NCBI GenBank assembly: GCA_017466805.1
Contig: JAFTTN010000063.1
Location: 7,156 to 71,155 of the forward strand
From: Clostridia bacterium
Lineage (GTDB): Bacteria > Bacillota > Clostridia > Oscillospirales > CAG-382
DNA: 64,000 nucleotides
Reading direction: 5' to 3'
Shown here: positions 11,809-41,876 of the stretch, piece after piece
Layout of the letters: every line of letters begins with the position of its first letter
Position numbering within the stretch: the first letter of the stretch is position 1
The notes under the pieces: generated by a model
Database searches by the model: none
What the model was told of the DNA's origin: nothing
The model's input: only the letters and a program-made list of their open reading frames with translations
Position numbers and translations under genes: made by a program

Positions 11809-11955
11809 CTCCTTTGACATTATAGCATAACGGTGTATAAAGAGCAATACGATATTGTAATTTAAATTTTTTAATGATATTATATAATAAAAGTGAGTGT
11901 TTTTAACAACTCATACGTATAAACACTTGAAACCGAAGTTAACGAGGTTCATAAA

Positions 11956-12501
11956 ATGAACAACGATCAGGGTGCAGTTTTCTACAAGCGGTTTCTTGAA
12001 GGCGACGAAAGCGCTTTCGAGGAGATACTGAACACCTATCGCGAGGGTCTGACGTTCTTTATCTGCCGCTACGTAAAAAACGTTGACGTTGCCGAGGATA
12101 TCGCTGCCGACGTTTTTGCGTACATTATCTTCAAACCGAAGAAATACAACTTCAAAGTAAGCCTTAAAACCTATCTTTACACGATAGGCAGGTCTCGTGC
12201 GCTCGATTGGCTAAGAAAAGAATCAAAACGAAGGCATATTCCGATCGAATCGCTTTACAACGAGCCTTCGGATAACAGCAAAACGCTTGAAGAAACGGTT
12301 ATCGCCGAGGAAGAAAAGCGCAAGCTTTACGCTGCAATGGATAAGCTTCCCGACGATTACAAAACGGCAATGCATCTTGTTTATTTCGAAGGCTTATCGT
12401 ATGAAGAAGCCGCAAAGGTAATGGACAAGAACAAAAAGCAAATCGAAAACATAATTTACAGAGCCAAAAAGACCTTGCGAAAATATTTGGAGGAAAGCTG
12501 A
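11956..12501 (+). CDS. ECF-type sigma-70 family RNA polymerase sigma factor
   Basis: 181 aa with only regions 2 and 4. The stop lies 1 nt before the next start. Confidence 0.85.
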   Translation: MNNDQGAVFYKRFLEGDESAFEEILNTYREGLTFFICRYVKNVDVAEDIAADVFAYIIFKPKKYNFKVSLKTYLYTIGRSRALDWLRKESKRRHIPIESLYNEPSDNSKTLEETVIAEEEKRKLYAAMDKLPDDYKTAMHLVYFEGLSYEEAAKVMDKNKKQIENIIYRAKKTLRKYLEES

Positions 12502-12502
12502 T

Positions 12503-14218
12503 ATGAGATCAAACGAAGAATTCAAGCAGCTTGTTAACGATAAATACGAAAAGTTAAATAAAAACAGACGCAATTTCAGACGCAGGCTTATGACAGTCGG
12601 CTCGAGCTTGATCGTAACGGTTATCGCGCTGAACGTATTTATCGGAAACGGTCTGTATAAAAAAATATTTTCCGGTGCTTCCGATTACGCATCTTCTGAA
12701 AGCGAAATCAGCAGCGCCGAATCACAAATCGATCACGACGGTAACGACTATCTTTCTGAAGAAGGCGGCAATGATACTCTGCAAAGCGAAGCAGAGGATT
12801 TTGAAGAATCCAAAGGTAACGTTTCGGAAGAAATTTTCGCAGAAGAAGGTGTCGACGCTTCAAACGGTCCCGATTTGACCGTAAGTGAAGACGAATACGA
12901 CTCCGATACATCCAAAAACGAAATATTCGACGCGGACGAAGACTTTATCTTTCGCCCCGACGGAATAATGAATATATATTCGACCGTTGATTTGATGCAC
13001 GAGCTTTACGGAGTTATCTACGAAGATCTATGCGGACCCGAAGACGAAGAGAATCTTTCTTTCCCCGAAGTAAGCGAGGGCGAAAGCGGAGCCGAAGAAA
13101 CACCGTTAGAACCCGACGTTGATTTAAGTCAAACACAAAACGGGCTGACAGATTTCAGTTTTTCGATATTTCGCGAATCGTACGAATACGGCAAAAACAA
13201 CTGTGTTTCGCCCGCGTCTGCCTTCTACGTACTTGGTATGGCTGCAAACGGTGCGCACGGCAACACCCTGCAAGAAATGATAGACACTCTTTGCGGTACC
13301 GATATTTACTCCTTGAATGCCTTTATGAAACACTATAAGGAGTTATACACGAACGACCTTTACCAAACGGCGAGCATTAACGGAGCGATGTGGTTTGATA
13401 GTGACGTAAGCATCGATAAGGGCTTTTTGAACACAAACAAAGAGTATTACAAAATGAACGCATACAAAACCGTAATGAACGACGGAACGGCGCTTGAAAG
13501 CATAAACGAGTGGATCAACAGAAAAACCTACGGTTTAATCCCCCGAATGCTTGACAACCTCAATCCCGGCACCGATATCGTTATGGCAAGTACGGTATAT
13601 TTCGAATCAAGCTGGAACAACAAATTCTCTTTATTGGAGGGTACGCAGAATTTCACATCCTCCGACGGCAAGATTAAGCAGGTTGAAATGATGATAGGCA
13701 GTGCCGACAAATATTTAGAAAACGGCCACTGCAAAGGATTTATCAAAGACTACGGCGAAAAGGGCAAGTTTAAATTTATTGCACTTTTACCGAACGAGAA
13801 TATAAGCTTAAAAATGCTGTTAGGTTCGCTTAATTCGCAAGAATACAGAAAGCTATTAAGCAATGCGAGCTATATCGACACCAACGTAACTATGCCTTTG
13901 TTTGAATGCACAGCAAGGCTTGAGCTGACCGATACGCTGAAAAAAATGGGCATTAAAGATGCTTTTGACGCCCAAAATGCTAACTTCTATCGTCTTACAG
14001 ACTCGAATTTATCTTTATCCAACGTATACCAAGACGTTACGATATCCGTTCACGAAAAGGGCACTCTTGCGGCAAGTGCAACAATAATTACCACACCCGG
14101 TGCAACTCCACCTTCCGAGACAAAGGAGTTAATATTCGACAAACCATTCCTATATATGATTATCGACAACGAAACAAAGCTTCCGATGTTTATAGGTACG
14201 GTCGAGGATTTCGAATAA
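12503..14218 (+). CDS. membrane-anchored serpin: short cytoplasmic N-terminus, 1 TM, acidic linker, serpin domain
   Basis: TM helix at roughly aa 30-52, an acidic low-complexity region to about aa 205, then a serpin fold. The hinge/RCL is EKGTLAASATIITTPGA and the C-terminal block is FDKPFLYMI. Confidence 0.85.
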   Translation: MRSNEEFKQLVNDKYEKLNKNRRNFRRRLMTVGSSLIVTVIALNVFIGNGLYKKIFSGASDYASSESEISSAESQIDHDGNDYLSEEGGNDTLQSEAEDFEESKGNVSEEIFAEEGVDASNGPDLTVSEDEYDSDTSKNEIFDADEDFIFRPDGIMNIYSTVDLMHELYGVIYEDLCGPEDEENLSFPEVSEGESGAEETPLEPDVDLSQTQNGLTDFSFSIFRESYEYGKNNCVSPASAFYVLGMAANGAHGNTLQEMIDTLCGTDIYSLNAFMKHYKELYTNDLYQTASINGAMWFDSDVSIDKGFLNTNKEYYKMNAYKTVMNDGTALESINEWINRKTYGLIPRMLDNLNPGTDIVMASTVYFESSWNNKFSLLEGTQNFTSSDGKIKQVEMMIGSADKYLENGHCKGFIKDYGEKGKFKFIALLPNENISLKMLLGSLNSQEYRKLLSNASYIDTNVTMPLFECTARLELTDTLKKMGIKDAFDAQNANFYRLTDSNLSLSNVYQDVTISVHEKGTLAASATIITTPGATPPSETKELIFDKPFLYMIIDNETKLPMFIGTVEDFE

Positions 14219-14228
14219 GAGAATACGC

Positions 14229-14255
14229 AAAAAGGACACCTTACGTGTCCTTTTT
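14229..14255. terminator. bidirectional intrinsic terminator
   Basis: AAAAAGGACAC-cttac-GTGTCCTTTTT lies between convergent genes. Confidence 0.7.
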
Positions 14256-14267
14256 GTTATACAAAAC

Positions 14268-15528: not shown

Positions 15529-16524
15529 TTATTCTGCGCCGTTTTCGATAAACGCAATAAGAAGATCGCCGCACGCCTTTAAATCGTCGCTATCGATGGT
15601 TTCAACGGGGCTATGAACGTAGCGTGTGGGAAGCGAAATACAACACGCATGCGAGCCTGCACCGGCTATCTGCATTTGCGAGGTATCGGTACCGCCGGCA
15701 AGAAGCACCTCGTATTGATATTTGATGTTGTTCGCTTCAGCCAAATCGGTAAGTCTGTCCACTATCTTTCTTGAGCAGATAACCGAGCTGTCCTTTATTT
15801 TAATAGCCGCACCGTTGCCGAGCTTTGCTGTAAGATGGTTTGGGTTACCGCAAGCAGGCGCAGGCGTAACGTCGAGCGCGATTGAATAATCGGGCATTAC
15901 CGCAAAGGACGAGGGCTTTGCACCGCGGCAGCCTACCTCTTCCTGAGTTGTGAATACGAAATAGGTATCATACGCGGGTACCTTGCAGTTAAGTGCTGCG
16001 TAAGCCGAAATAGCACAGCATACGCGGTCATCAAACGCTTTGGAAGCGTAACGCTTCGAGGAAAGCTTTTTGAACATAGGAGCAAGCGCGCATACGTCGC
16101 CAACCTTAACCTTGCGCTTCGCCTTAGCTCCGCTGTCTGCGCCGATATCGACAAAAAGCTTATTTGCAGTAAGATCGGAAGCTCGTGTACCGTCCTCTAC
16201 AACCAATATGCCCTGCGTTCCATTTTGGAATTTTACGTTATGGTAGCAGGAAGCCAGCGCGTTGATACCGCCGATAGGTGCAACGCGAATCATGCCGTTA
16301 TCTTCTACGTTTACAACCATAAAGCCGATTTCATCCATATGCGAAGCAATCATAAGCTTTTTCGAGGAATCCTTGCCCTTTTTAAGAACGATTACGTTCC
16401 CCATAGCATCGATAGAAATTTCATCGGCTATTCCGGCAAGATCGGTTTTGATTATTTCGGCGAGTTCGGTTTCGTAACCGGAAACTGAGAATGCGTTTTG
16501 ATATTTTTTTACGTGATTAAGCAT
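15529..16524 (-). CDS. M42-family metallo-aminopeptidase (FrvX/TET-like), paralog 3
   Basis: HMDEIGFMV and AFDDRV motifs. 331 aa. Confidence 0.85.
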   Translation of the reverse strand: MLNHVKKYQNAFSVSGYETELAEIIKTDLAGIADEISIDAMGNVIVLKKGKDSSKKLMIASHMDEIGFMVVNVEDNGMIRVAPIGGINALASCYHNVKFQNGTQGILVVEDGTRASDLTANKLFVDIGADSGAKAKRKVKVGDVCALAPMFKKLSSKRYASKAFDDRVCCAISAYAALNCKVPAYDTYFVFTTQEEVGCRGAKPSSFAVMPDYSIALDVTPAPACGNPNHLTAKLGNGAAIKIKDSSVICSRKIVDRLTDLAEANNIKYQYEVLLAGGTDTSQMQIAGAGSHACCISLPTRYVHSPVETIDSDDLKACGDLLIAFIENGAE

Positions 16525-17543
16525 TAGTCAAAGCTCCTTTCATTAATCGCTGCGGCAAGGTCGGCCACAGCCTGCATATCGGAAAGCGACAGCACGTTTG
16601 ATGCGGAATGGATATATCTTGCAGGTGCACTAATTGCAAGAACTCTTGCACCGGTAGCGGCACGCTGATATACACCGGCTTCGTTACCGCCCGCGACGAC
16701 GTTTTTATACTGCCATTTAATATTCTTTTCTTTCGCAACCTCGGTTGCGAGAAGCACGAGCTCTTTATCGTAAATAGTGCTTCTGTCCATAAGCGAAAGC
16801 ACCGCACCGCTGCCTACCGAGCAAGCGCATTTTGATTTAGGCACACCGAGTATATCGCCCGCAGTTGTTGCCTCGAGCGCGATAACTATATCGGGACGAA
16901 GTCTGTGGGATACCTCTTTTGCACCGTCGCACCCGATTTCCTCGCAGGTATTGAACGCAAAATAAGTATCGTATTCGAGCTCGCTGTTTATCATCGCAAC
17001 GAGTGCGGCGCATCCGAAACGGTCATCGAGGGCCTTGGAACGAACGAGCCCATTGCCGAACTCTTCGTAATTCGGTTCGAAAGTACAGCAATCACCGATA
17101 GTGATATATTTTTTCGCGTCTTCGCGGCTTGATGCGCCGATATCGATATGCATTTCGCTTATAGCTTCGCATTTTCCGCGTTCCTCGAGCGTTTGCATAT
17201 GAATTGCTTTCGATGCAACGACACCGTTAATACCGCTTTCACAGAACACGATTCTCTTGCCGCTTACGACGCGTCTGTCGATACCGCCGACTGCATCGAA
17301 CCATAGGTAGCCTTCCTCGTCTATATACTTGATCATAAATCCTACTTCATCTGTATGTGCCGAGAATAGAACCTTTTTGTTTCTTCTGTTTTTCCCTTTT
17401 TTGAAAACGATAAGGTTGCCTATCGGATCGGTTTCGTATTCTGCACCCGAATCCTTAATATCTTCGATAATTGCTTCACGTATCGCATCCTCCATACCCG
17501 AAGGACCGAGGATATCGCAATATCTTTTCAAATATTTCATCAT
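16524..17543 (-). CDS. M42-family metallo-aminopeptidase, paralog 2
   Basis: HTDEVGFMI and ALDDRFG motifs. 339 aa. Confidence 0.85.
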   Translation of the reverse strand: MMKYLKRYCDILGPSGMEDAIREAIIEDIKDSGAEYETDPIGNLIVFKKGKNRRNKKVLFSAHTDEVGFMIKYIDEEGYLWFDAVGGIDRRVVSGKRIVFCESGINGVVASKAIHMQTLEERGKCEAISEMHIDIGASSREDAKKYITIGDCCTFEPNYEEFGNGLVRSKALDDRFGCAALVAMINSELEYDTYFAFNTCEEIGCDGAKEVSHRLRPDIVIALEATTAGDILGVPKSKCACSVGSGAVLSLMDRSTIYDKELVLLATEVAKEKNIKWQYKNVVAGGNEAGVYQRAATGARVLAISAPARYIHSASNVLSLSDMQAVADLAAAINERSFD

Positions 17544-17557
17544 TGCGTTTTCCTCCC

Positions 17558-18589
17558 TTACATCGAAGCTATAACCGCCGCGATAAGCCGCGAGGTATTA
17601 TAGGCATCGTTCATATTCACAATTTCGCTCATTGTATGCATATTTTTAAGCGGAATAGATATTAAAAGTGTGGGTATACCGTTGCGCGTTGTCTGTACCG
17701 CATTGGAATTCGTGCCCGTTCTGCCGGGTGCGGCGGAAAGCTGATAAGGTATTTCCTCACGTTCTGCTATTGCAACAGCCTGCTTAGTAAACGCACGGTT
17801 GGTTTGAGGAGAAAAACAAATATCGCCGCCTTTTCCTGCGCGAACGCCCTCACGAGTTTTCGGCGCGCCGGGAACGAATGCATGTGTAACGTCGATAACT
17901 ATCGCTTTGTCGGGATTAAGGCGGTAAGCTGTAGTCATTGCGCCTTTATATCCGGTTTCCTCATTACCCGAAAATTGAAACGCAACGTCGACGTTAAGTT
18001 TTGATTTATCGAGCATCATAAGCGCACGTACTATTGCCGCTCCGCAAAGCCTATCGTCGAAGCCTGCGCCAGCAAGGTTATCGTTTAAAAGCTTTTTAAG
18101 CTTGCAGGGGAAGCCGACGGGAGTACCGATACGCACAATTTTTTTAAGCTCATCGAGCGAAAGACCCGTATCAACGCAAAGGTCGGTAACGTTCATTTTC
18201 TTTTCGCTTTCTCCGGGCTCCTGCAAATGCGGAGGCTTTGAGCCGAACACGCCGCGAATTGTTTTTTTGCCGTACACCTTGACCTCTGCAGAGGGTAGAA
18301 TCTTCGCCGCAATACCGCCGATAGGGGCAATTCGGAGAAAACCGCCCTCGCAAAGCTCGGTAACGACGAAGCCGACTGTATCGAGATGGGCGTCGCAAAG
18401 AACAAGCGGTGCGTTTTCCTTGCCGCAACGCATTATTCCATAGAAGCTGCCGACCGAGGTAGTGCCGATTTCATCGAAAACGCCAAGTGTTTCGACGTAG
18501 CGTTTCAGTTCGTCAAACGCCATATCCTCGAACCCCGAAACGCCGGGATAAGAGGTAAAGTTTTCGACGAGAGAGTATAGCCTTTCCAT
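17558..18589 (-). CDS. M42-family metallo-aminopeptidase, paralog 1
   Basis: AHLDTVGFVV and GFDDRLC motifs. 343 aa. Confidence 0.85.
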   Translation of the reverse strand: MERLYSLVENFTSYPGVSGFEDMAFDELKRYVETLGVFDEIGTTSVGSFYGIMRCGKENAPLVLCDAHLDTVGFVVTELCEGGFLRIAPIGGIAAKILPSAEVKVYGKKTIRGVFGSKPPHLQEPGESEKKMNVTDLCVDTGLSLDELKKIVRIGTPVGFPCKLKKLLNDNLAGAGFDDRLCGAAIVRALMMLDKSKLNVDVAFQFSGNEETGYKGAMTTAYRLNPDKAIVIDVTHAFVPGAPKTREGVRAGKGGDICFSPQTNRAFTKQAVAIAEREEIPYQLSAAPGRTGTNSNAVQTTRNGIPTLLISIPLKNMHTMSEIVNMNDAYNTSRLIAAVIASM

Positions 18590-20410: not shown

Positions 20411-20446
20411 AAAAGCACCCGTTTTAACACGGGTGCTTTCGTTTTA
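20411..20446. terminator. bidirectional intrinsic terminator (rnpB / serpin-2)
   Basis: AGCACCCG-ttttaaca-CGGGTGCT followed by TTTCGTTTT. Confidence 0.7.
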
Positions 20447-20450: not shown

Positions 20451-21794
20451 TTATGCATTCGGATTCATCATCGTTCCAATAAAGAACGGGGTATTTGTTT
20501 CGCTGTCTATAATCATATAAACATACGGTCTGTTGAGATACACCTCTTCATATTCGGGCATACCGCCGCAATTCATTTCAACAACAGTCGCAGCGCCCGC
20601 CTTTGTGCCCGTGTACGTCACGGCTATCGACGTTTCGTGATATACTTTGGAAATATAAAGTCCGGCAGGATTTCCCATATTTGAAAAATCTGCAGATAAC
20701 GAATCGAATGCGAGAGGCATTCCCATTTCTATCAGCGCGTCGTTAAGATTCGTCTTAAACCCCGTTTCAAATGAAGGCATCGAAGCGTAGACTGTTGTTT
20801 GTCGCTGTGACATAAACAGATCATTCAGTTTTTCGCCGCTGAGCGATTGAACGTAATCGGTTATACTTATATCCTCGTTCGGTAATATTGCGGCAAACGC
20901 ATATTTACCGTCCTTATATGGCTTAATAAAGCCTGTCGCGTCATCGGAGGAGAGATATATAGATTCGGTAGAACCCATATATTCAACCTTGACCTGCTCT
21001 CCGTTTTCAAGATTGAAGTAATTCTTTACAATGCCGTGCTTCTCATATATTTCTTCCCACTCGGCTTCAAATACAAGCGCATTGATAAGATACATTATCG
21101 CATCAGGATCGATCTCATCGAGCATTTGGGGAATCATTCCGTCAGTCTTTAGATCGATCCACTTATTGATATCGTTCAACGTACCGTTATCGAAAACATC
21201 TTTTCTGATTTCCGCCGAATAATAATCCGCGTTGGTCTGAAGAAAGTCCCTGTTCGGTTCAAATTCGGGGGTATCCCTGAACCAGATCGCGTTTGCTATA
21301 TCGAAGCTGTATTTATCACCTTGAGGGCGAGTATTTATATAGCTGTATAAATATTCATTCAGCTCGCGAACGCTCATTCCGAGAACCGATTCCATTTGCG
21401 AGAGCGTTTCGCCGTTTGCTCCGTTTGCCGTCATCGAAAGCGCGCAAAGCACGGAAAGCGGCGATATAAGAGTGTTTTTACCGCTCTGCTCGGTTGCCTT
21501 AAACAATCTGACGGCAAAATCGTTATATGCGTCATTACCTTTATCAATGCTTGTTATCGCAATATGATTCGGAACGATGCCTTCCATAAGGTTTTCTGCT
21601 TTTACAGTATTTTCGCTGTCGGGCAGAAGCGCAAACACCACAAACGAAAAAACCATACAGAAGCAGGCGGCGATTGCAATACCTTTTAGAAGAAACCTTT
21701 TCTTCTTGGGCTTACCTCTTCTTAATTTATCGACCTTTTCTATGTATTCGTCATCTATCAAGTTTAATGCTTCTTGTAAATTTTCTGTTTTCAT
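20451..21794 (-). CDS. membrane-anchored serpin: short cytoplasmic N-terminus, 1 TM, serpin domain
   Basis: N-terminus MKTENLQEALNLIDDEYIEKV, TM helix at roughly aa 36-56, then a serpin fold. The hinge/RCL is TGTKAGAATVVEMNCGG and the C-terminal block is LNRPYVYMI. Confidence 0.85.
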   Translation of the reverse strand: MKTENLQEALNLIDDEYIEKVDKLRRGKPKKKRFLLKGIAIAACFCMVFSFVVFALLPDSENTVKAENLMEGIVPNHIAITSIDKGNDAYNDFAVRLFKATEQSGKNTLISPLSVLCALSMTANGANGETLSQMESVLGMSVRELNEYLYSYINTRPQGDKYSFDIANAIWFRDTPEFEPNRDFLQTNADYYSAEIRKDVFDNGTLNDINKWIDLKTDGMIPQMLDEIDPDAIMYLINALVFEAEWEEIYEKHGIVKNYFNLENGEQVKVEYMGSTESIYLSSDDATGFIKPYKDGKYAFAAILPNEDISITDYVQSLSGEKLNDLFMSQRQTTVYASMPSFETGFKTNLNDALIEMGMPLAFDSLSADFSNMGNPAGLYISKVYHETSIAVTYTGTKAGAATVVEMNCGGMPEYEEVYLNRPYVYMIIDSETNTPFFIGTMMNPNA

Positions 21795-22351
21795 AGCTTA
21801 TAGCCCTCCTTTTCGAGATGAATTTTAAGTTTTTGCCGAGTGCGGAAAAGCAGAGTTTTGGCTTTGCTTTCGCTCACACCGCAATAACGGCTTACTTCTT
21901 TTAGCGAATCGGAAAAGTAATATCTTCCGATAAACAGATTCCGCGAGGTTTCGGGGAGTTCTTTAAGAAAATCATTTATCACGCCTGCAAGATGACGCAC
22001 TTCGATTTCCTGTTCGGTAGAGTTCCCCACCGAAAGACAGCCTTCCAATTCATTCATCGAAACAACGTATTCCGACGGAATACGCTTATCGCGGTTTCTT
22101 TTACGAAAAATATCTATTGCAATACGCCTTGTTAGCTTTGCCAAATAAACCGACAAGGTTAACGGCCTTTGCGGCGGAATAGAATTCCACGCGGCAAGAT
22201 ATGTATCGTTTACACTTTCTTCGCTGTCTTGATTATCCGAAAGAATATTGTATGCGATTTTAAAAAGATATTTGCCGTATTTGTCCTGCGTTTCTTTAAG
22301 CGCAGATTCATTTCTTTCCCAATACAGCTCTACTATTTTTTCATCCTGCAT
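21791..22351 (-). CDS. ECF-type sigma-70 family RNA polymerase sigma factor
   Basis: 186 aa with regions 2 and 4. ATGA overlap with the serpin gene. Confidence 0.85.
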   Translation of the reverse strand: MQDEKIVELYWERNESALKETQDKYGKYLFKIAYNILSDNQDSEESVNDTYLAAWNSIPPQRPLTLSVYLAKLTRRIAIDIFRKRNRDKRIPSEYVVSMNELEGCLSVGNSTEQEIEVRHLAGVINDFLKELPETSRNLFIGRYYFSDSLKEVSRYCGVSESKAKTLLFRTRQKLKIHLEKEGYKL

Positions 22352-22396
22352 CTTATTCCCTCCCTTTTTATGTGTTCGGCGCCTGCATACATATAT

Positions 22397-22422
22397 ATCG
22401 TTTTATTTTAAATTCGGTTTCA
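22397..22422 (-). promoter_or_regulatory. candidate ECF-type promoter TGAAAC-N16-CGAT upstream of sigma-2
   Basis: Minus strand reads TGAAACcgaatttaaaataaaaCGAT, 46 nt before the ATG. It resembles the SigW-type TGAAAC-N16-CGTA consensus. Confidence 0.35.
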
Positions 22423-22519
22423 CTTTTTATAAAATTATAATACAAAAAACAATAAAAATCAAATTTAACAAAAGTTTATATTTTTTACATTACATATTTG
22501 AATTTTGCTGTATATTTCC

Positions 22520-26918: not shown

Positions 26919-26951
26919 CTTAATCGCACTTTAATATATTTTGTGTAGAAT
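26919..26951 (+). promoter_or_regulatory. candidate response-regulator box plus -10: CTTAAT-N4-CTTTAAT-N10-TAGAAT
   Basis: Direct repeat with ~11-bp phasing in the -35 position, upstream of the response-regulator (RR) gene. The same architecture occurs at 29044-29076. Confidence 0.45.
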
Positions 26952-26973
26952 TGTATCGGAAGGATGTGAATAT

Positions 26974-27648
26974 ATGAGAATACTCGTTGTGGAAGACGAA
27001 AAAAATTTAAACAGACTTATTTCCGATATGCTCAAAAAAGAGCATTACAGCGTTGATTCCTGCTTTCGCGGCGACGAAGCGGAGGACTACCTGCGCGGAG
27101 CCGAATACGATGCGATAGTGCTTGATATAATGCTGCCCGCAAAAAACGGTATACAAATTTTGCGCGATATGAGGGTGCGAAAAGACAAAACACCGGTGCT
27201 TTTGCTAACCGCAAAGGACAGCGTAGCAGACAGAGTTGCCGGACTTGATGCAGGTGCAGACGATTATTTGGTAAAGCCGTTTGCCAAGGACGAGCTTTTG
27301 GCGCGTATAAGAGTTATGATAAGGCGTTCCTCCGGCAGCGTAAGCAACGTATTCAGCGTTGCCGATTTAACCGTTGATTGCGATTCACGCATTGCAAAGC
27401 GCGGCGAAAGCGTGATTCAGCTTGCAACGAAGGAATTTGATTTATTGGAATATTTAATTCGAAACGCAGGTAAGGTTTTAACTCGCGAAAAGATAAGCCA
27501 CCATATTTGGAATTACGATTACGAGGGCGGCTCGAACGTCGTCGACGTTTACATACGCTATCTGCGCAAAAAGCTTGACGAGGGATTTGAGCCCAAGCTG
27601 ATACATACGGTACGCGGCGCAGGCTACGTTTTGAGGGTTAACGAATGA
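26974..27648 (+). CDS. OmpR-family response regulator
   Basis: MRILVVEDE receiver domain and a winged-helix C-terminus ([11 protein letters not shown]). Confidence 0.9.
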
Positions 27649-28997
27649 AGCGGTTATCGATTAAGTTTAAAGTCACCTTTTGGTTTACGCTGATAATGAT
27701 TCTTATAGTTGCGGCTACTCTTGCTTTTTTGTTCTATATGGGCGAAAAAATAGTTTACGAGGAAACAAACGCAAGACTTACCGACGCCGTAGACGACAGT
27801 TTTAGCGAAATCAAATATCGCTTCGGGGAGCTTGATATCGACGACGACCTTGATTATTACAACGAGGGTGTATACATAGCCGTATACGACTCGGATAACA
27901 AGCTTATATACGGAAGACTGCCATCGGATTTCGACAGAGCACTTCCCTTTCGCTACGGCGAAATGCAGGCTATAGGAAATGACGAAAACGTTAAATACGT
28001 GCTTGATGAAGTACGTGACGTCGGCAAAGGATACGAGGTAACCGTACGCGGTGTTTTATCTACTTCCGGCAGTGAACGCGCTTTTTCTGCAATGCTATCG
28101 GTTGCTTTGATTGCTTTCCCGGCTCTGATCATCATTGCCGCTTTGGTGGGATATTTGCTAACCAAGCGCGCATTTAAGCCGGTTAAGCAGATAGTATCCT
28201 CGGCAGAGCATATTAACAGCGGCAACGATCTTTCAAAGCGAATTGGATTGGAAGACGGAAAAGACGAAATACACCAGCTTGCAAACGCATTCGATATGAT
28301 GTTCGACAGGCTTCAGGAATCGTTCGAAAACGAAAAAAGATTCACATCGGATGCATCTCACGAATTGCGCACACCGATTGCGGTTATTATTGCCGAGGCA
28401 GAAAACGCATTGGACAGCGGCGAAACACAGGGCGAAGCGAGAAGAGCACTTGAAGTAATATATGAAACTGCGGCAGATACCTCCGTATTGATTTCAAGCC
28501 TGCTAATGCTTGCGCGCGCGGACAAGGGACATCTTAAATTAAATAAAGAAATTATTGATTTCTCGGAAATATGCAGATTGGTATCGGAGCTTACGGCGGA
28601 AACGGCAGAAGAAAAAGAAATAGCTGTGACGTTTGAATCCAAGGAAAGTATTTTTATCGATGGCGACCAAGCCATGCTTATTCGAATGCTTTTGAATATC
28701 TGCGAAAACGGTATTAAATACGGAAAAAATGGCGGAAGGCTCGATATTTCACTTGAAAAAGACGGAAAATATGCAGTATGTCATATTATAGACGACGGGA
28801 TCGGGATTTCCGATGAAGGAACAAAAAGGATTTGGGAGCGCTTTTACCGCGTGGACGAGGCACGTTCTGACGGAAGCGGGCTCGGATTACCGCTTGCAAA
28901 ATATATTGCAGAGGCACACGGCGGTACGATTACCGTTAAAAGCGAATTGGGCAAGGGCAGCGAATTTTGTATAACCCTCCCCATATACGAGCGTTGA
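27645..28997 (+). CDS. sensor histidine kinase (2 TM, HAMP, HisKA, HATPase)
   Basis: H-box SHELRTP and G-boxes DDGIGI and GSGLGL. ATGA overlap with the RR gene. Confidence 0.9.
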
Positions 28998-29043
28998 ACA
29001 AATCAATTTTTAAAAATTTAAAGATTAAAAATTTTTTCGATTC

Positions 29044-29076
29044 CTTAATGTGTCTTTAATCTTAGATGGATAAAAT
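29044..29076 (+). promoter_or_regulatory. candidate response-regulator box plus -10: CTTAAT-N4-CTTTAAT-N10-TAAAAT
   Basis: Same motif and spacing as at 26919-26951, upstream of the PepSY lipoprotein gene. Confidence 0.45.
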
Positions 29077-29131
29077 ATAGGTGTAAGATGAAGACATCGA
29101 ACAAATAACAATTTTAGAAAGGAATCATACT

Positions 29132-30223
29132 ATGAAAAAGAAGGTTTTATTATTAACCGTTTGCGCACTCGTTGCTTCGCTTTTGCTTGCAGGCTGCAAC
29201 GGCCTTGGAGCAGTTGAACCCGAATACACCACAGCAGGAAACGGTGCACAGGTAATTACCGAAGACACAGCAAAGCGTGCTTCGACCGGCTCGCAATCGA
29301 TCAACAGCGAAGACGTTACGTTTACCTCTGTCGAGCTCGAAACCGAAAACGGCAAAAGTGCTTACGAAGTGGAATTTTTATACGACGGATACAAATACAA
29401 GGTTGACATTGACGCTGAAACCGGCGACGTTCTCGAGGTAAAAAAAGAAGCCTACAGCGACGAAATCCTCGAGGTTGTATATATCACCGAAGAGGCTGCT
29501 CTTGATTCTCTTTTCGCCAAGGCCGGCTTAACCAACGTTACAAAGGCAGACCTTGAATATTGCGAAATCGAGCTTGATGACGACGGTGCTTTTTACAAAT
29601 ACGAAATCGAGTTTGTTTACAACGGCGTTGGTTATGAGGCTGACGTTTCCGCAATAGACGGAGCGGTTTATAATTACGAGCAATGGTTTATCAGAAACGC
29701 CGACATCGATAACGACAACGATGACGACGATGACGACGATAAAGTAACCGTTAACACCGACGAAATCATAAGCAAGGACGACGCACTCGCAAAGGCATTG
29801 GCGCACGCAGGTATTGAAGAAGCCGATATTCTCGGCAAGGTACACGTTAAGCTCGAACGCGACGACGGAAAAGCGGTTTACGAAATCGAATTTGTTTCGG
29901 GTTACACCGAATACGATTATGATATCGATGCAGTTACCGGTGAAGTAGTAAGCTTCGACCGTGATGGCGAGCACGCCTCCGCACCCGAAGCATCTATTCC
30001 CAATGCAAGCGAGCTTATCGACAATGAAGCGGCACTTGCTGCAGCATTTGCACACGCAGGAATTGATGCAGGTGCAGCAAGCAAAATTGAAATCGAGCTG
30101 GACGACGAAAACGGCGAATACGTTTACGAAATCGAATTTATGAGCGGCGAATACGAATACAGCTACGACGTTGATGCATTTGACGGCAGTGTTCTTCGTT
30201 TCGACAAAGAAATCGACGACTAA
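29132..30223 (+). CDS. lipoprotein with four PepSY domains
   Basis: Lipobox LLAGC. Four repeats of the Y.YE.EF...Y.Y..D..TG.V type, with a poly-Asp linker. Confidence 0.8.
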   Translation: MKKKVLLLTVCALVASLLLAGCNGLGAVEPEYTTAGNGAQVITEDTAKRASTGSQSINSEDVTFTSVELETENGKSAYEVEFLYDGYKYKVDIDAETGDVLEVKKEAYSDEILEVVYITEEAALDSLFAKAGLTNVTKADLEYCEIELDDDGAFYKYEIEFVYNGVGYEADVSAIDGAVYNYEQWFIRNADIDNDNDDDDDDDKVTVNTDEIISKDDALAKALAHAGIEEADILGKVHVKLERDDGKAVYEIEFVSGYTEYDYDIDAVTGEVVSFDRDGEHASAPEASIPNASELIDNEAALAAAFAHAGIDAGAASKIEIELDDENGEYVYEIEFMSGEYEYSYDVDAFDGSVLRFDKEIDD

Positions 30224-33579: not shown

Positions 33580-34047
33580 ATGAAGGTAATATTTCTTGAT
33601 ATAGACGGTGTTTTGAATTCGTTTAAATACGACCTCCACCGAGGTGAAGGCGAAGGCAATATAGATATAACGCGCATGCCGCTTTTAAAGCGCATCGTTG
33701 ACAAGACGGGTGCTTTGATAGTATTATCGAGCAGTTGGCGCAAATATTGGGAAAAAGAGGATAATTTTGACCCTATCGGTGCAGAGCTAGACGCGGTTTT
33801 CGGTCGGTTTGGCTTGGAGATATACGACAAAACACCGTTTTTGCAGATAGGAAGCCGCGCACACGAAATAATGAGCTGGCTGGAACAGCACGAGAACGAG
33901 GTTGATGCTTTCGTAGTAATCGACGATGCTTTCGGCGGTTGGGGCGCGATTACGAGCAACGTGGTACGTACCGATGCACGAATCGGTTTTGGCTTGATGG
34001 GTACACACGTTGACAAGGCTATTGAAATTTTAAACCGAGCGAGATAA
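33580..34047 (+). CDS. HAD-superfamily phosphatase-like protein
   Basis: MKVIFLDIDGVLN (DxDG motif I). RBS GGAG. Confidence 0.7.
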   Translation: MKVIFLDIDGVLNSFKYDLHRGEGEGNIDITRMPLLKRIVDKTGALIVLSSSWRKYWEKEDNFDPIGAELDAVFGRFGLEIYDKTPFLQIGSRAHEIMSWLEQHENEVDAFVVIDDAFGGWGAITSNVVRTDARIGFGLMGTHVDKAIEILNRAR

Positions 34048-34048
34048 A

Positions 34049-34075
34049 AGACGGAGCTTAATGCTCCGCCTTTTC
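34049..34075 (+). terminator. intrinsic terminator of the HAD gene
   Basis: GACGGAGC-ttaat-GCTCCGCC followed by TTTTC. Confidence 0.6.
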
Positions 34076-34105
34076 ATCAAAAATCGATTTCTTTTCAACA
34101 AGGGG

Positions 34106-34186
34106 CTACTGCGCCCATTAGGTGTCGGTAGCCCTATGTCAATTTGATACCTCAAAGAAGTATTTAACTTAAAAGTTTATACAACA
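34106..34186. repeat. 81-nt repeat, copy R1
   Basis: 77 of 81 positions identical to 35118-35198. Contains a stem GGGCTACTG/CGGTAGCCC around the loop cgcccattaggtgt. Confidence 0.9.
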
Positions 34187-34255
34187 GAAAGATATATATG
34201 CTTTCTTTACAGTTCGTTATCTTGCGGTTTGTTTTCAAGTGGTGCGTTTTGCGCA

Positions 34256-34975
34256 CTACACTTTGAAAAATTCTATAAATGATCTGATAGCCCAACGAAT
34301 ACCGCGTTTTTTATTTATTGTGTTCAATGTATCCTTCATACGTTCAACAACGATTTCTTCGTTACAAAACTCTGAAGTCATGCTCTTAATATGCTCCGGA
34401 GCTATCCAAATCGGTTTTTGGAGCGCAGCTTCGAGTATTGTCTTTGAGGTTTTGTATACTTTAAATACCGTGCCGTAGCCTCCCGCGCAGAGTTTTTCTC
34501 GAAGTTCGTTTAAAACGAATATAACTTCATCGACAAACAGTATAAGCGTAAAAGAGTCGAGCTTCGCGGCATTTTCTTGTACATATCGAAGCATATCCAA
34601 AAGACCGTTACGGTCTGCTAAACGCACTATAATTTCACCGTAACTGTAAAACTCATGAAATTTGCGAGAAGCATTGTTTTCTTGCAAAAAGCCGTTGCGG
34701 TGTATCTCCTTTAACTCTTGCAACCATTTTTCTTCCAACGCTTTGGGAACTTCATGTTTTTTATAGGTGTCGTATATTTCTTCACGAGCCATGTGGAAAG
34801 CGCTACCATCATACTTCATAAAGATTTCTTTTGCTTCTTTGTATTTGTTTTCGTCGCCCTGCCAAGCGTATGTTTCACGAACGCTTGGTTGTTTTTTATT
34901 AGTGGACAGTAATCTATAAAACCGAAAGCACACAATCAAAAAAATAATTGCCATCAGAACATCATACATCGTCAT
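34256..34975 (-). CDS. hypothetical, island family 3 (N-terminal TM helix plus helical domain)
   Basis: Shares KY.EAKEIFMKY.G and C-terminal ..ILE.AL.KP.. blocks with 36768-37313. RBS AAGGAG. Confidence 0.6.
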   Translation of the reverse strand: MTMYDVLMAIIFLIVCFRFYRLLSTNKKQPSVRETYAWQGDENKYKEAKEIFMKYDGSAFHMAREEIYDTYKKHEVPKALEEKWLQELKEIHRNGFLQENNASRKFHEFYSYGEIIVRLADRNGLLDMLRYVQENAAKLDSFTLILFVDEVIFVLNELREKLCAGGYGTVFKVYKTSKTILEAALQKPIWIAPEHIKSMTSEFCNEEIVVERMKDTLNTINKKRGIRWAIRSFIEFFKV

Positions 34976-35011
34976 TTTTTCTTATGCTCCTTGATGTTTG
35001 TCGTTTGTGAT

Positions 35012-35095
35012 AATGTCTTATATATTTCTCTGCCTTGGCTATGGCTTCGGGGTTTTGGATTATGTAAATGTTTTTTACATCATCAAATATAAATC
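35012..35095 (-). pseudogene. 3'-end remnant of an island family 1 gene
   Basis: Minus-strand translation DDVKNIYIIQNPEAIAKAEKYI matches the conserved tail NILIIQNPEAIAEVEKYIS. It has no start and no N-terminal part. Confidence 0.7.
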
Positions 35096-35117
35096 TAAAT
35101 CCGTCACTCTGTAAATT

Positions 35118-35198
35118 CTACTGCGCCCATTAGGTGTCAGTAGCCCTCTGACAAATTGATACCTCAAAGAAGTATTTAACTTAAAAGTTTATACAACA
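35118..35198. repeat. 81-nt repeat, copy R2
   Basis: See R1. The stem here is CTACTG/CAGTAG; the G-to-A change converts a G-U pair into an A-U pair. Confidence 0.9.
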
Positions 35199-35234
35199 AG
35201 AAGGAGATGTTTTCCTCTTATAAAAAACACATTC

Positions 35235-36035
35235 TTATGAAATAGATTGGAGCTTATCAAACAGGTTTTCCAAGCGTTTTTTTACACTTTCCTCGGATGC
35301 GACACTTTCCCATAGACGTTTATTCAAGTACGCCTCCGACATTTGTATCGGCCGATTAAGCTCATTTTCAAGAATCGGCAACAGCAAGTCATTTATCTTT
35401 GCGGTCAACTCGTCGTTTCCGATTTTTTCAGCAGTATCGTAAAGCTTTTCTGCGCGAAGCAATACAGAAATCGAGTCGAGCTCCTTTGCATTATCCGCAA
35501 AATACGACAACATAAATTCCAATGCAGTAGAATCGTTTAGTATAACAGCTAAATTGCCGAGATTTTGAAAGTTAAAAGTTTTGGTGGCTTCATCAACCTC
35601 GCCGGGAGCGGCCGACAGCACATTTATTGCTTCTTGTTTTAACTCCTCATTAAAAGCTCGCGATGCTGCTTCCCATTTTGGCGCAAAATGCGCTTCATAT
35701 TTAGCCATTAGATCTTTACAATAATGCAAACTTGTAATGTTATCATAGTTTTCTATTAAATAATCGATCAAACCAAAGATGTCAACGTTTTCGATCGGCG
35801 CCATATTGTTTTCGGCTGTTAGTATTTGTGTTAGTTTAAAGATTGCCCCATCACCAAGATATCGAATTGTAATATCGGGCGATTCATCATATCGACCTTT
35901 TGACAGCGAGAACATATAAATTGTATTAGAGTAAGCTATTATGTTTTTTCTCGATGCAACGCACTTATAACCTATTTTTTTGAAACAACGCATTTTTCTT
36001 TTGATTTGCCTTTTTTCCTTGAATGTGAATTCCAT
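35235..36035 (-). CDS. hypothetical; C-terminal domain related to island family 3
   Basis: The C-terminal half aligns with family 3 (..AKELDSISVLL...LLPILENELNRP..). Start at the second ATG, 6 nt after AGGAGG. Confidence 0.55.
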   Translation of the reverse strand: MEFTFKEKRQIKRKMRCFKKIGYKCVASRKNIIAYSNTIYMFSLSKGRYDESPDITIRYLGDGAIFKLTQILTAENNMAPIENVDIFGLIDYLIENYDNITSLHYCKDLMAKYEAHFAPKWEAASRAFNEELKQEAINVLSAAPGEVDEATKTFNFQNLGNLAVILNDSTALEFMLSYFADNAKELDSISVLLRAEKLYDTAEKIGNDELTAKINDLLLPILENELNRPIQMSEAYLNKRLWESVASEESVKKRLENLFDKLQSIS

Positions 36036-36052
36036 ACTCATCCTCCTATGAA

Positions 36053-36239
36053 TTAATCATTCTTATGCTGAAATATTAAAGTGTTCGCGCCTGATGTGTC
36101 GCTTACTATCGTGCAGTTACCCCAAGCATCGTAGTTGTATCTCGCTACAATATTGCCGTTCGAGTCGAATACGTGTACTACGTCGCCTTGCGCGTTCTTG
36201 CCGTAGTATACGTTTTTTCTTTTTTGATTTGTATTTTTT
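36053..36239 (-). pseudogene. start-less RHS/YD-repeat stub
   Basis: My translation gives ..KNVYYGKNAQGDVVHVFDSNGNIVARYNYDAWGNCTIVSDTSGANTLIFQHKND*. There is no start codon, and a stop lies directly upstream. Confidence 0.7.
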
Positions 36240-36260
36240 CATAATCACACGTCGGAATAT

Positions 36261-36704
36261 TCAAGAAATCTTTTCGACAACCTCACAAATTTTTGTGTTT
36301 GGGTAGTATCTGATAAGATAAGTTTCGCCAACCTCGACACCCTGTAAGTGCAGTATTATGTATTCATCGGTATCGATAACATATAGCTTGGGGTCGTTGT
36401 ACGAAATTTGACCGTTACCGTCTAAATCACGTTCTATGCGCGTATATTCTATAACTTTGCATTCTTCTTCGATATAAGTATCGTTTGTTACGTATGACAA
36501 ATCTTTATAACATTCAACGAAATGCTTGGCGGTCAAAAATCCAAATAACAGAAGAGCGCAAACGGAAACAACTAAAAGAACCGAACCGTATTTTCTTTGT
36601 AAAAATATTCGTTTTGAAAATACAATTGATACTATTAGCAGTATGCAAATTAATATTAGCCCTATTAACGATAAATAAAATAGTGTCCAAAATTGCTTTT
36701 CCAT
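36261..36704 (-). CDS. hypothetical 2-TM protein, island family 2
   Basis: MEKQFW... with the conserved tail NDTYIE...TDEYIILH..G..VGETYLIRYYPNTKICEV. Paralogous to 40821-41288 and 41285-41731. Confidence 0.6.
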   Translation of the reverse strand: MEKQFWTLFYLSLIGLILICILLIVSIVFSKRIFLQRKYGSVLLVVSVCALLLFGFLTAKHFVECYKDLSYVTNDTYIEEECKVIEYTRIERDLDGNGQISYNDPKLYVIDTDEYIILHLQGVEVGETYLIRYYPNTKICEVVEKIS

Positions 36705-36767
36705 GTTTTTTCCTTTCATATTTTGTTATATGCAGATCTAAATACTGATACTATTATGCGACATTAT

Positions 36768-37313
36768 TTATGCATTTTTTAGTGTGTTTAGTGCCTCTTG
36801 CAAACGTTCATTTATGTTTTCTTCGGTAAAAGCCGAACGATCGATTAGTAAGAACTCTTCGGACAGCAATAAAGGTTTACTAAGTGCATCTTCAAGAATG
36901 GGAATAACAATTTCCTTTGTCTTTGCCAAAAAGGTTGCATCTTCAATAAACTCTTTAATGCGAATTGCTGTTCTTATGAGGTCTTCCGCCCATAGAACCA
37001 ATGGAATTGTTGTCATTTGTTTTGCACGTTGGGAGGTATTAATAAGAAGATCAATAAGACCGTCGATATCTTTTAATCTGTTTAGAACTTCAATTGCATC
37101 CCAGAATTTTTTAATATATTTCTTTTCATTCGTTTCACTATCGAGTCTTGATATACATATTTCTTTAAGCTCTGCCAACCATTTTCTTTCGATTCGGCGC
37201 GGCACACCGTAAGATTTATAGAGATCATATTCTCCGTCGAGGTCCATACCATAATGGTCGCCTTGATATTTCATAAATATTTCTTTTGCTTTTTCGTATT
37301 TCTTTGTAAACAT
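36768..37313 (-). CDS. hypothetical, island family 3
   Basis: KYEKAKEIFMKYQG... Paralogous to 34256-34975. Confidence 0.6.
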   Translation of the reverse strand: MFTKKYEKAKEIFMKYQGDHYGMDLDGEYDLYKSYGVPRRIERKWLAELKEICISRLDSETNEKKYIKKFWDAIEVLNRLKDIDGLIDLLINTSQRAKQMTTIPLVLWAEDLIRTAIRIKEFIEDATFLAKTKEIVIPILEDALSKPLLLSEEFLLIDRSAFTEENINERLQEALNTLKNA

Positions 37314-37358
37314 ATGAGAAAAATCCTTTCTATTTTATAGCTCTCCGAACTCATTTGT

Positions 37359-38189: not shown

Positions 38190-38212
38190 ATTATCTCCTT
38201 AGTTAAATATCT

Positions 38213-38352
38213 TTCACATACTTTTTTATTGATAACAGTGCAACTGCTAACAATTTAGGGTTATCTTTGTATACTTCAAAAGCATTTTTTGCGAGCGTTA
38301 AATAATCCTGCGTGCCCTGTCCATATGACAAAAGCCTCTTTGTTGTTATAGT
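38213..38352 (-). pseudogene. start-less orphan tip following junction hairpin A
   Basis: The open frame TITTKRLLSYGQGTQDYLTLAKNAFEVYKDNPKLLAVALLSIKKYVKDI* starts right after a stop and shares the TITT junction with 42349-42570. Confidence 0.4.
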
Positions 38353-38412
38353 TCATAAGGCGAGGTGTTAGTACTTCGCCTTATTTACTGTTACACTTAG
38401 TTTGACAATTCA
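38338..38412. repeat. junction repeat A (hairpin 38357-38382)
   Basis: About 75 nt, nearly identical to 42541-42614. Contains the hairpin AAGGCGAGGT-gttagt-ACTTCGCCTT. Confidence 0.85.
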
Positions 38413-39412: not shown

Positions 39413-39533
39413 TATTAGCTTACCTTTCAAATCGGCGTATAAGACACGATACCACTATTTAATATATCTAAAGCTTTTCCAAAACCAAGTCCTATATTAA
39501 TCAGCAGACCTTCTCTTTTGTGATATTTTTCTG

Positions 39534-40034: not shown

Positions 40035-40110
40035 TTTTCAAATACCCCCCTACCAATATCGCGTTCAACATAAAGTTCGTTTCGAGCGGTTCTTTGACTA
40101 TGAATAAGAT

Positions 40111-40165
40111 TCTTTGTTGTTATAGTTCATAAGGCGTGGTGTTAGTACTTCGCCTTATTTAAAAT
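40111..40165. repeat. junction repeat B (hairpin 40131-40156)
   Basis: ctttgttgttatagttcat AAGGCGTGGT-gttagt-ACTTCGCCTT attt. Confidence 0.85.
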
Positions 40166-40191
40166 TGCTTCTCTTTTGTGATATTTTTCTG

Positions 40192-40686: not shown

Positions 40687-40694
40687 ATAAATAA

Positions 40695-41850: not shown

Positions 41851-41876
41851 TTGCTTCTTTTTTGTGATATTTTCTG

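Follow-up and report, generated by a model that had tools for sequence, protein, structure and literature searches.

A gene for an extracytoplasmic function (ECF) sigma factor followed by a gene for a single-pass membrane protein is the standard layout of a sigma/anti-sigma pair. Two operons of this layout, in which the membrane protein carries a serpin domain, are present in the window analysed here, a 64,000-nucleotide stretch of the genome of a gut Clostridia bacterium (GenBank assembly GCA_017466805.1, contig JAFTTN010000063.1). Pair 1 is located at positions 11956-14218 of the plus strand and pair 2 at positions 22351-20451 of the minus strand. We propose that each pair is an autoregulated ECF sigma/anti-sigma operon, in which the outer domain of the anti-sigma factor is a tengpin-type inhibitory serpin, and we give this reading about an even chance of being right. 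An earlier note on this DNA, made from the sequence alone, knew of no description of a serpin in this position. The literature on bacterial serpins, siropins, and anti-sigma and ECF sigma factors that we searched contained no link between a serpin and a sigma factor either, and the main text of the ECF reclassification paper, taken without its supplements, mentions neither serpin nor macroglobulin. The sigma-serpin layout is apparently undescribed so far.

The arrangement can be compared to receptor-type ECF anti-sigma systems, for example RsiV/sigma-V of Bacillus subtilis and Clostridioides difficile, in which an ECF sigma factor is likewise co-transcribed with a single-pass partner from an autoregulated operon. 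The ectodomain of RsiV binds the host defence enzyme lysozyme, and intramembrane proteolysis follows (PMC4183432, PMC6066255); a similar course of events is proposed here. Signal peptidase makes the site-1 cut in RsiV only after ligand binding has unmasked a juxtamembrane site (PMC6066255, PMC4183432). The proteins of the window differ from RsiV in that their ectodomain is a serpin. The serpin itself would be the countermeasure and would be consumed by its ligand, and the N-terminal module has no match to DUF4179 or to an RsiV-type domain. The switch proposed here is the stressed-to-relaxed transition of the serpin, in contrast to the amphipathic helices of RsiV. In its modularity the layout resembles SigI/RsgI of cellulolytic clostridia, which also form multiple paralogous pairs with single-pass anti-sigma factors of varied ectodomains. 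The RsgI ectodomains bind the substrate whose degrading or handling machinery is induced by the sigma factor. However, the SigI/RsgI systems are distinguished by a SigI-specific C-terminal domain, by RsgI_N, and by ectodomains that bind carbohydrate and are not protease inhibitors. Neither pair in the window has a Pfam match to RsgI_N or to a SigI-type domain, and the sigma factors have an ordinary r4_2. The cytoplasmic segments also lack the class I anti-sigma fold of RsiW, RseA, ChrR and zf-HC2 proteins, which comprises four helices and about 80-90 residues. Class II anti-sigma domains such as CnrY and NepR are very short cytoplasmic two-helix elements that bind sigma factors (PMC6101532). 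Class II domains act as clamps on regions 2 and 4 of the sigma factor. The segments described here recall class II domains by their size. AlphaFold predicts two short helices ahead of the transmembrane helix in pair 2, and in pair 1 one helix continuous with the transmembrane helix.

The closest solved structure to the serpins of the window is that of tengpin from the thermophilic Firmicute Thermoanaerobacter tengcongensis (2PEE/2PEF), which has an N-terminal clamp, A-N-L-M..., in common with pair 2. Published discussion treats this clamp as an adaptation for thermostability. The work on tengpin used a soluble, truncated form of the protein, left aside both residues 1-31 and the neighbouring genes, and took the clamp for a means of stabilisation and not for a signalling element. 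Tengpin inhibits elastase, and its N-terminal peptide clamps a hydrophobic patch at s1A and helix E, for which N40-L41-M42 are essential (PMC1905895). Tengpin lacking the clamp relaxes spontaneously, and after the stressed-to-relaxed transition s1A fills the clamp site (PMC1905895). The clamp sequence A-x-D/N-L-M-E-G-I-x-P-N is also kept in many serpins of mesophilic gut Clostridia, where it follows a lipobox Cys or a transmembrane helix. Serpins of gut commensals, including the siropins, miropin and the Bifidobacterium longum serpin, belong to the same prokaryotic group as those in the window, and are under study in inflammatory bowel disease for their modulation of host proteases. The siropins of Eubacterium siraeum inhibit neutrophil elastase and proteinase 3 (PMC5127057), and the bond at which siropin 2 was reported to be cleaved, P6-P5 Val-Glu, corresponds to P6-P5 Val-Glu of the pair-2 serpin (PMC5127057). 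The siropin and Gut Serpinome papers report no link of a serpin to a sigma factor. The bifidobacterial serpin is controlled by a two-component system and not by an ECF sigma factor, according to work cited in PMC8201313; within the searchable literature, this appears to be the only described regulation of a serpin in gut bacteria.

Pair 1 starts with ECF sigma factor 1 (type-B family, 181 residues, 11956..12501, plus strand), which matches Pfam Sigma70_r2 (E 5.9e-9) and Sigma70_r4_2 (E 3.9e-13). Its stop codon TGA at 12499-12501 is separated by one base from the ATG at 12503 of a 571-codon open reading frame (ORF, 12503-14218, plus strand), which has GGAGG 9 nucleotides upstream of the ATG. 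The product begins with a cytoplasmic N-terminal module (residues 1-28, 12503..12586), a putative sigma-binding or anti-sigma segment, which is the best-conserved part of the protein and gives a weak match to a hidden Markov model of type-B partners. Residues 1-27 contain nine Lys or Arg versus four Asp or Glu. A single transmembrane helix follows (residues 29-52, 12587..12658), as judged from hydropathy and from the AlphaFold model, in which residues 5-48 form one continuous helix. The acidic spacer (residues 53-159, 12659..12979) is disordered according to its excess of Asp and Glu and its low AlphaFold confidence (pLDDT): residues 51-212 include 48 Asp or Glu versus five Lys or Arg, and pLDDT is below 50 at residues 57-155 and 170-204, compared to about 90 in the serpin body. 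Between the spacer and the serpin is the only clamp candidate of pair 1, a degenerate tengpin-like VDLM motif, STVDLMHELYGVI (residues 160-172, 12980..13018), the putative homology of which to the tengpin clamp is based on a motif shared with orthologues; T-V-D-L-M/L is present in six of eight of them, and AlphaFold places a short helix of low confidence at residues 158-169. The serpin domain (residues 213-571, 13139..14218) matches Pfam Serpin PF00079 with E 7.8e-72 over model positions 3-369 of 370 (residues 215-569), and its best solved relative is tengpin 2PEE/2PEF (E ~4e-54). The hinge and reactive centre loop (RCL), EKGTLAASATIITTPGA (residues 518-534, 14054-14104), has the P15-P9 sequence G-T-L-A-A-S-A of the inhibitory type, and P1 is Ala when the hinge is counted from P17 Glu. 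The s1C block FDKPFLYMI is formed by residues 545-553 (14135-14161). The earlier note had described this protein accurately. Its gene layout with the 1-nucleotide gap is exact in the ORF list, the two-domain sigma factor and the complete serpin are recovered by Pfam, and residue counts, hydropathy and predicted disorder agree with the basic N-terminus, one transmembrane helix and acidic spacer that it had listed. The inhibitory-type hinge, P1 Ala and FDKPFLYMI block were all located in the 571-residue protein, and the second pair implied by its label "pair 1" is present on the minus strand at 22351-20451.

In pair 2, ECF sigma factor 2 (type-A family, 186 residues, 21791..22351, minus strand; Pfam r2 and r4_2) overlaps by ATGA with the gene for serpin protein 2, which has 447 residues (21794-20451, minus strand). 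Both sigma factors consist of regions 2 and 4 only, without region 3 or 1.1 in Pfam, and score 94.5 bits (sigma 1) and 70 bits (sigma 2) against NCBIfam TIGR02937 sigma70-ECF, for which the cutoff is 42.9. The N-terminal module of serpin protein 2 (residues 1-33, including ALNLIDDEYIEKVDKLRR and a basic stretch, 21696..21794) is the cytoplasmic part of the protein, recognised by the module profile and by the co-variation with the sigma factor described below, and AlphaFold predicts two short helices, at residues 4-11 and 15-26, ahead of the transmembrane helix (residues 34-57, 21624..21695, from hydropathy; AlphaFold helix at residues 31-56). A juxtamembrane V-K-A is followed by the tengpin-type clamp AENLMEGIVPNHIA (residues 64-79, 21558..21605), identified from the alignment to tengpin 2PEE, and by the serpin domain (residues 89-447, 20451..21530, Pfam Serpin E 2.4e-83). 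The RCL comprises residues 393-419 (20538-20618), and the hinge G-T-K-A-G-A-A has Gly at P15, Thr at P14 and small residues at P12-P9. Serpin protein 2 is 45% identical to tengpin, its best Foldseek match (phmmer E 5.8e-106). Both pairs have a complete serpin fold, the body of which AlphaFold models with confidence.

The segment VKAENLMEGIVPNHIAITSID of serpin protein 2 aligns residue by residue with the start of crystallised tengpin, VQAANLMDRIKANPVSEKNID. The clamp itself, AENLMEGIVPNHIA, is matched by the first residues of 2PEE, VQAANLMDRIKANPVS, and within it the core VKAENLMEGIVPN aligns to VQAANLMDRIKAN of tengpin, so that the pattern A-x-(D/N)-L-M is present in both. The motif is conserved, with A66 and M70 invariant in 31 sequences. 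The clamp of pair 2 starts about ten residues past the transmembrane helix. In 11 of 12 fused type-A proteins, a small-x-Ala motif precedes the clamp directly and lies 5-9 residues past the hydrophobic segment, whereas pair 1 has no conserved A-x-A past its transmembrane helix. When the two pairs are compared with each other, the serpins are 34% and the sigma factors 20% identical. These values rule out a recent duplication as the source of the two pairs, which are old relatives at best.

The adjacency of sigma factor and serpin reported in the earlier note is conserved in relatives, which we established from orthologous loci and from a survey centred on the serpin. Genome scans with one genome per species identified orthologues of sigma 1 (68-86% identical) in seven metagenome-assembled genomes (MAGs) from GTDB. 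In six of the seven, the next gene encodes a protein of 525-567 residues with the same layout, and the seventh copy is truncated (L027:4548-5138); its early end after 196 residues, within the acidic spacer, could point to a pseudogene or a misassembly. A search with the whole pair-1 protein, perhaps limited by the low-complexity spacer, returned only 14 matches. A full-length orthologue (P0002, 42% identical) follows a sigma gene with the same flanking genes. Pair-1 orthologues are found in at least eight species. A more distant relative of sigma 1 (L032, 54% identical) is followed by a partner with a similar N-terminus and transmembrane helix, with another small ectodomain and without a serpin. 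Next to another distant relative, the genes for a 150-residue single-pass protein and for a lipoprotein serpin follow one after the other. For sigma 2, orthologues (58-85% identical) were identified in 17 MAGs. All 17 loci contain a serpin, as a fusion to the N-terminal module or as a gene directly 3' of that for a single-pass partner of about 180-430 residues. At 41-44% identity to sigma 2, the sigma factors still have a partner of this kind, but its ectodomains are others. The nearest relatives are Oscillospiraceae/Eubacteriales MAGs from animal guts, and two related MAGs carry both pairs adjacent on one contig, about 8-9 kb apart (L026/L070 and L028/L069).

The serpin-centred survey covered the best 79 of at least 555 loci related to the pair-2 serpin. 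Eleven loci were at contig edges, which left 68 assessable. Seven of these were fused, and 28 were split, with separate genes for the sigma factor, the small single-pass partner and the serpin, which is then a lipoprotein. In the other 33, no sigma gene was present over a distance of at least 1.5 kb upstream. Linkage to a sigma factor was thus seen in 35 of 68 loci, or about half of those that could be assessed, which makes ECF sigma/anti-sigma operons a candidate means of control for the tengpin- and siropin-like serpins of Clostridia that are nearest to pair 2. The sigma and partner genes overlap or are separated by 1 nucleotide in nearly all loci, which indicates translational coupling, and one transmembrane helix follows a basic N-terminus in every locus examined, giving a single-pass protein with the N-terminus inside. 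The serpin protein is therefore in the anti-sigma position, directly after the sigma gene, single-pass and coupled, as had been claimed. The layout is widespread and may let bacteria sense and answer proteases. Some of the surveyed genomes have tandem arrays of two to four serpin genes (L016, L020, L009 and L085). Other serpin relatives (P0008-P0011) have SLH or copper-amine-oxidase-N-like wall-binding domains, which could be alternative means to keep serpins at the cell surface.

The short N-terminus of the serpin proteins evolves as a part of the sigma system. Among eight pair-1 orthologues, the mean pairwise identity falls from 0.50 in residues 1-27 to 0.37 in the serpin domain and 0.15 in the spacer. 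A profile of the type-A module finds the gene after the sigma factor in 27 type-A loci and no other ORF among 2,897; it misses the two most divergent type-A loci (L024 and L005). Compared with a library of 1.84 billion representatives, the profile matched 1,432 clusters at 50% identity with varied C-terminal parts. The matches always cover residues 1 to about 55 of proteins that range from 59 to 1,592 residues, and a type-A sigma gene is located directly upstream in all three informative genomic contexts. The type-B module has the consensus M-R-x-F-E-E-R-K-A-E-I-F-R-R-S-E..., and its profile ranks pair-1 N-termini among the top matches, with E 7.6e-4, a weak match, for the N-terminus in the window and down to 7.9e-6 for its orthologues. 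The sigma factors of these loci are relatives of sigma 1 (E 1e-52 to 1e-60), and the profile connects pair 1 with split partners of sigma factors from the sigma-1 family. The only pair-1-type partner seen without a link to a serpin is that of L032. Two large, so far unannotated families of N-termini that look anti-sigma-like can be defined from these profiles.

In 12 fused type-A systems, the identity of the N-terminus correlates with that of the sigma factor (r = 0.82; partial r = 0.72 given the serpin) and not with that of its own serpin (partial r = -0.14). The closest relative of the pair-2 operon at 20451-22351 (L069, SVRD01000003.1) provides an example. Its serpin is 89% identical to that in the window, its sigma factor 61% and its N-terminus 26%, whereas three other loci (L036, L070 and L071) have serpins that are 55-57% identical to that in the window, sigma factors that are 78-85% identical and N-termini that are 89% identical. 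It seems that the sigma factor and the N-terminal module have been swapped together, as one unit, with respect to the serpin. These comparisons support the reading of the N-terminus as a sigma-partner module and not just an anchor, with specific pairing for the pair-2 type.

Alignment of 31 pair-2 relatives indicates how the serpin came to be attached to this module. Collinearity between the fused and the lipoprotein forms starts at the motif V-x-A-(E/K/Q)-(D/N)-L-M-E-G-I. In front of this motif, the fused forms carry M-K-x-E-x-L-x-D-A-L-x-L-I-D-D-x-x-I-E..., a basic stretch and the transmembrane helix, and the module exactly replaces the signal peptide and Cys of the lipoproteins. Stand-alone partners have the same N-terminal module with their own folded ectodomain, which is lost in the fusions. 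On neighbour-joining trees of type-A sigma factors, the fused state requires six changes (5-7 in 100 bootstraps), and the type-B family contains fusions in the pair-1 clade and in L105. Fusion therefore arose repeatedly, which by the usual logic of gene fusions suggests that partner and serpin work together. The earlier note had placed the serpin in the anti-sigma position and suggested that it may act as a suicide-substrate sensor. The position is borne out, and the adjacency is conserved; the reading itself has to be refined, since the serpin protein is best read as a small anti-sigma-like gene fused to a lipoprotein serpin, an arrangement that occurs in two sigma families. The unfused three-gene form is commoner than the fusion. 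No ectodomain that might serve as a serpin-binding domain is shared by the split partners of the two sigma families, since the families differ. Several stand-alone type-A partners (L048:2922-4223, L049:5558-6808, L037, L041 and L044) end in a beta-rich domain of about 90 residues without a Pfam model, which is present in three or four copies in L048 and L049; type-B partners have at least two other unannotated ectodomain families.

The type-A module is also fused to a second kind of protease trap. In L063:3447-8779 (GCA_964403505.1, CAYOFP010000002.1), a type-A ECF sigma gene of 185 codons overlaps the start of a gene for a 1,592-residue protein, in which the same N-terminal module and transmembrane helix are followed by Big_5, MG2, a bait region and A2M. 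The CxEQ thioester motif was not found in this alpha-2-macroglobulin. A matching promoter-like motif, TGTAACC-N16-ACGTC, is present upstream. Alpha-2-macroglobulin is an inhibitor unrelated to serpins, and it works by a protease-triggered conformational change. Fusion of the module to both a serpin and an alpha-2-macroglobulin makes the linkage to protease traps look specific and strengthens the protease theme.

ECF sigma factors typically autoregulate from promoters that combine an AAC-type -35 with a CGT- or CGA-type -10 element. Each operon of the window has its own ECF-type promoter motif. That of operon 1 (GTGTTTTT-N11-CGTATAA, 11897..11922, plus strand) is conserved in aligned pair-1 orthologues, and that of operon 2 (TGAAACC-N14-ACGATAT, equivalent to TGAAAC-N16-CGAT, 22395..22422, minus strand) is conserved upstream of type-A sigma genes at 17 loci, with the form TGAAAC-N16-CGA(T/G)AT across the orthologous loci. 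Each motif occurs once in the 64-kb window, at its own operon, compared to 0.01 occurrences expected. Upstream of the ECF motif of operon 1 is a promoter-like site of the sigma-70 consensus (TTTAAA-16-TATAAT, 11861..11888, plus strand), assigned from a consensus match of 10 of 12 positions, and a site likewise assigned by consensus match lies upstream of the ECF motif of operon 2 (22434-22462, minus strand). These predicted sigma-70-type sites would provide basal expression. Both operons are two genes long, with a terminator 3' of the serpin gene and no nearby gene on the same strand. The terminator of operon 1 is a hairpin between convergent genes (14228..14256) with a 12-bp stem, AAAAAGGACAC/GTGTCCTTTTT, and that of operon 2 is an intrinsic terminator on the minus strand (20412..20439) with an 11-bp GC-rich stem followed by a T run. 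According to the promoter motif scan, the sole predicted product of each sigma factor in the window, besides the sigma factor itself, is its serpin. Both operons look like self-closed, autoregulated circuits.

Based on these features, a mechanism can be proposed. The cytoplasmic N-terminus of about 30 residues would hold the sigma factor at the membrane, and the transmembrane helix would anchor the protein, with its serpin exposed on the outer side. In pair 1, about 110 residues of disordered acidic spacer would lie between serpin and membrane, and in pair 2 the serpin would be almost in contact with the membrane. Attack of a protease on the ectodomain may lead to a cut in the anti-sigma factor near the membrane, followed by intramembrane proteolysis and release of the sigma factor. 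The free sigma factor would transcribe its own operon from the ECF-type promoter and thereby produce more sigma factor and more surface serpin. The output would be the protease-inducible production of a suicide inhibitor, replacing the molecules that are consumed. The target proteases are probably elastase-like, because P1 of pair 1 is Ala and both tengpin and the siropins are relatives. No site-2 protease was seen among the part of the window ORFs, about 40, that was scanned against Pfam.

How an attack outside could be transmitted to the membrane can be suggested for pair 2. In tengpin, the clamp site is taken by s1A on insertion of the RCL. An RCL attacked by a protease should therefore cause pair 2 to lose its clamp, A-E-N-L-M..., from this site and may expose the juxtamembrane V-K-A to a site-1 protease, which could be signal peptidase, as for RsiV. 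Pair 1 has a degenerate clamp motif at a long distance from the membrane, and a cut would more likely fall in its exposed acidic spacer; this spacer may in addition carry the serpin across the cell wall. We speculate that the stressed-to-relaxed switch of the serpin could act as a transmembrane receptor, in which covalent capture of the protease leads to RCL insertion, expulsion of the clamp, cleavage at V-x-A and release of the sigma factor; we consider this sequence possible and put it forward tentatively. Under this reading, serpins and alpha-2-macroglobulin would be the sensors of a protease-detecting family of anti-sigma factors in gut Clostridia. If the serpin is a sensor, it would be the first case found in which the conformational change of a suicide inhibitor is used in transmembrane signalling, and it would give commensals a direct route to read the activity of host or competitor proteases, as well as a simple, transplantable protease-responsive gene switch.

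Several observations speak against the proposed function. The cytoplasmic part of about 28-33 residues is shorter than class I anti-sigma domains, and matches no anti-sigma model, which agrees with the caveat of the earlier note that this segment is far shorter than a canonical anti-sigma domain. The N-terminal parts and three stand-alone partners have no significant match in Pfam (E to 10) or NCBIfam (E to 0.1); in these scans, a DUF4179 match over the transmembrane helix was non-significant (E 0.19), and a word-index search with the 58-residue N-terminus of pair 1 gave no match. The N-terminal codons abut the sigma gene, so that physical linkage contributes to the co-variation of module and sigma factor. 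Cleavage of an RCL, which is near the C-terminus, does not by itself shorten the ectodomain, and cleaved serpins are very stable. The V-x-A motif shows the same degree of conservation in lipoprotein serpins and tengpin; in tengpin it packs against helix F, and it may therefore be structural. P17 of pair 2 is Tyr, whereas the usual residue is Glu, and among seven pair-1 orthologues L028 and L029, and doubtfully L026, have charged inward-facing hinge residues and look non-inhibitory. AlphaFold models the RCL of pair 2 as inserted, in a latent-like state, and the hinge of pair 1 as a strand, so that the models are uninformative about docking of the clamp in the native state. The commoner split form keeps the serpin apart from the anti-sigma-like partner, and this partner has a folded ectodomain of its own, which may be the sensor; the ectodomain families of the partners are not the same in the two sigma families. 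It follows that the serpin may be cargo and not a sensor.

This last point is the core of the alternative that survives best. The N-terminus could be a true anti-sigma element and the serpin a passive effector fused to it, which gains membrane anchoring and 1:1 co-expression, with the sigma factor freed by envelope stress or general turnover. The separate lipoprotein serpins of most relatives, next to partners with their own ectodomain, suggest that another sensor is normal, and some pair-1 orthologues keep the architecture with the non-inhibitory-looking hinges described above. However, the fusions have lost the partner ectodomain and have the serpin in its place, so that no other candidate sensor domain is left, and the fusion occurred repeatedly in two sigma families. 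The alpha-2-macroglobulin fusion also speaks for a specific linkage to protease traps. We regard the passive serpin as conceivable, but on balance doubtful. Even if the serpin is cargo, the loci provide two unannotated anti-sigma-like families and a testable regulatory logic for the protease defence of commensals.

Secretion-coupled release of the sigma factor, which we consider improbable, would be a different use of the same parts. The N-terminus and transmembrane segment would form a long cleavable signal peptide that signal peptidase cuts constitutively at V-x-A, directly ahead of the clamp, to yield a soluble serpin, and the leftover peptide bound to the sigma factor would be cleared by a site-2 protease, so that sigma activity reports the export of the serpin. 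The small-x-Ala motif before the clamp in 11 of 12 fused type-A proteins and the exact replacement of the lipoprotein signal peptide by the module are compatible with such processing, and both RsiV and RsiP are known to receive their site-1 cut from signal peptidase. However, the hydrophobic segment of about 24 residues resembles an anchor rather than a signal peptide, the conservation of V-x-A in lipoprotein serpins and tengpin may have the structural reason given above, and pair 1 has no conserved A-x-A past the transmembrane helix. Constitutive release combined with positive autoregulation would also lead to runaway expression.

That there is no anti-sigma factor at all, and that a signal-anchored serpin is co-transcribed with a sigma factor controlled transcriptionally or by an unlinked factor, would fit the cytoplasmic part of only about 30 residues and its lack of a match to known anti-sigma models, but is quite unlikely, since a plain anchor needs just positive charges and a hydrophobic stretch, whereas the motif here is better conserved than the serpin, tracks the sigma factor and not the serpin, belongs for the pair-2 type to a large N-terminal family that is always beside its sigma factor (with L032 as one example for the pair-1 type), and is coupled to the sigma gene by an overlap or a 1-nucleotide gap in nearly all loci.

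The genes around both operons are ordinary chromosomal genes of a Clostridia bacterium. Three tandem paralogous genes for M42 aminopeptidases are located between the two sigma-serpin operons (15529-18589, minus strand). At 26941-30223 on the plus strand, genes for an OmpR-type response regulator and for a histidine kinase with HAMP precede one for a protein with three PepSY repeats, which are peptidase-propeptide-like; this gene set may be another protease-related envelope module. The stretch at 34000-42400 has a GC content of 0.34-0.37, compared to about 0.44 elsewhere, and contains ten consecutive minus-strand ORFs of 150-350 codons, eight of which have no Pfam match and two of which have weak matches to DUF families. 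It may be an acquired island.

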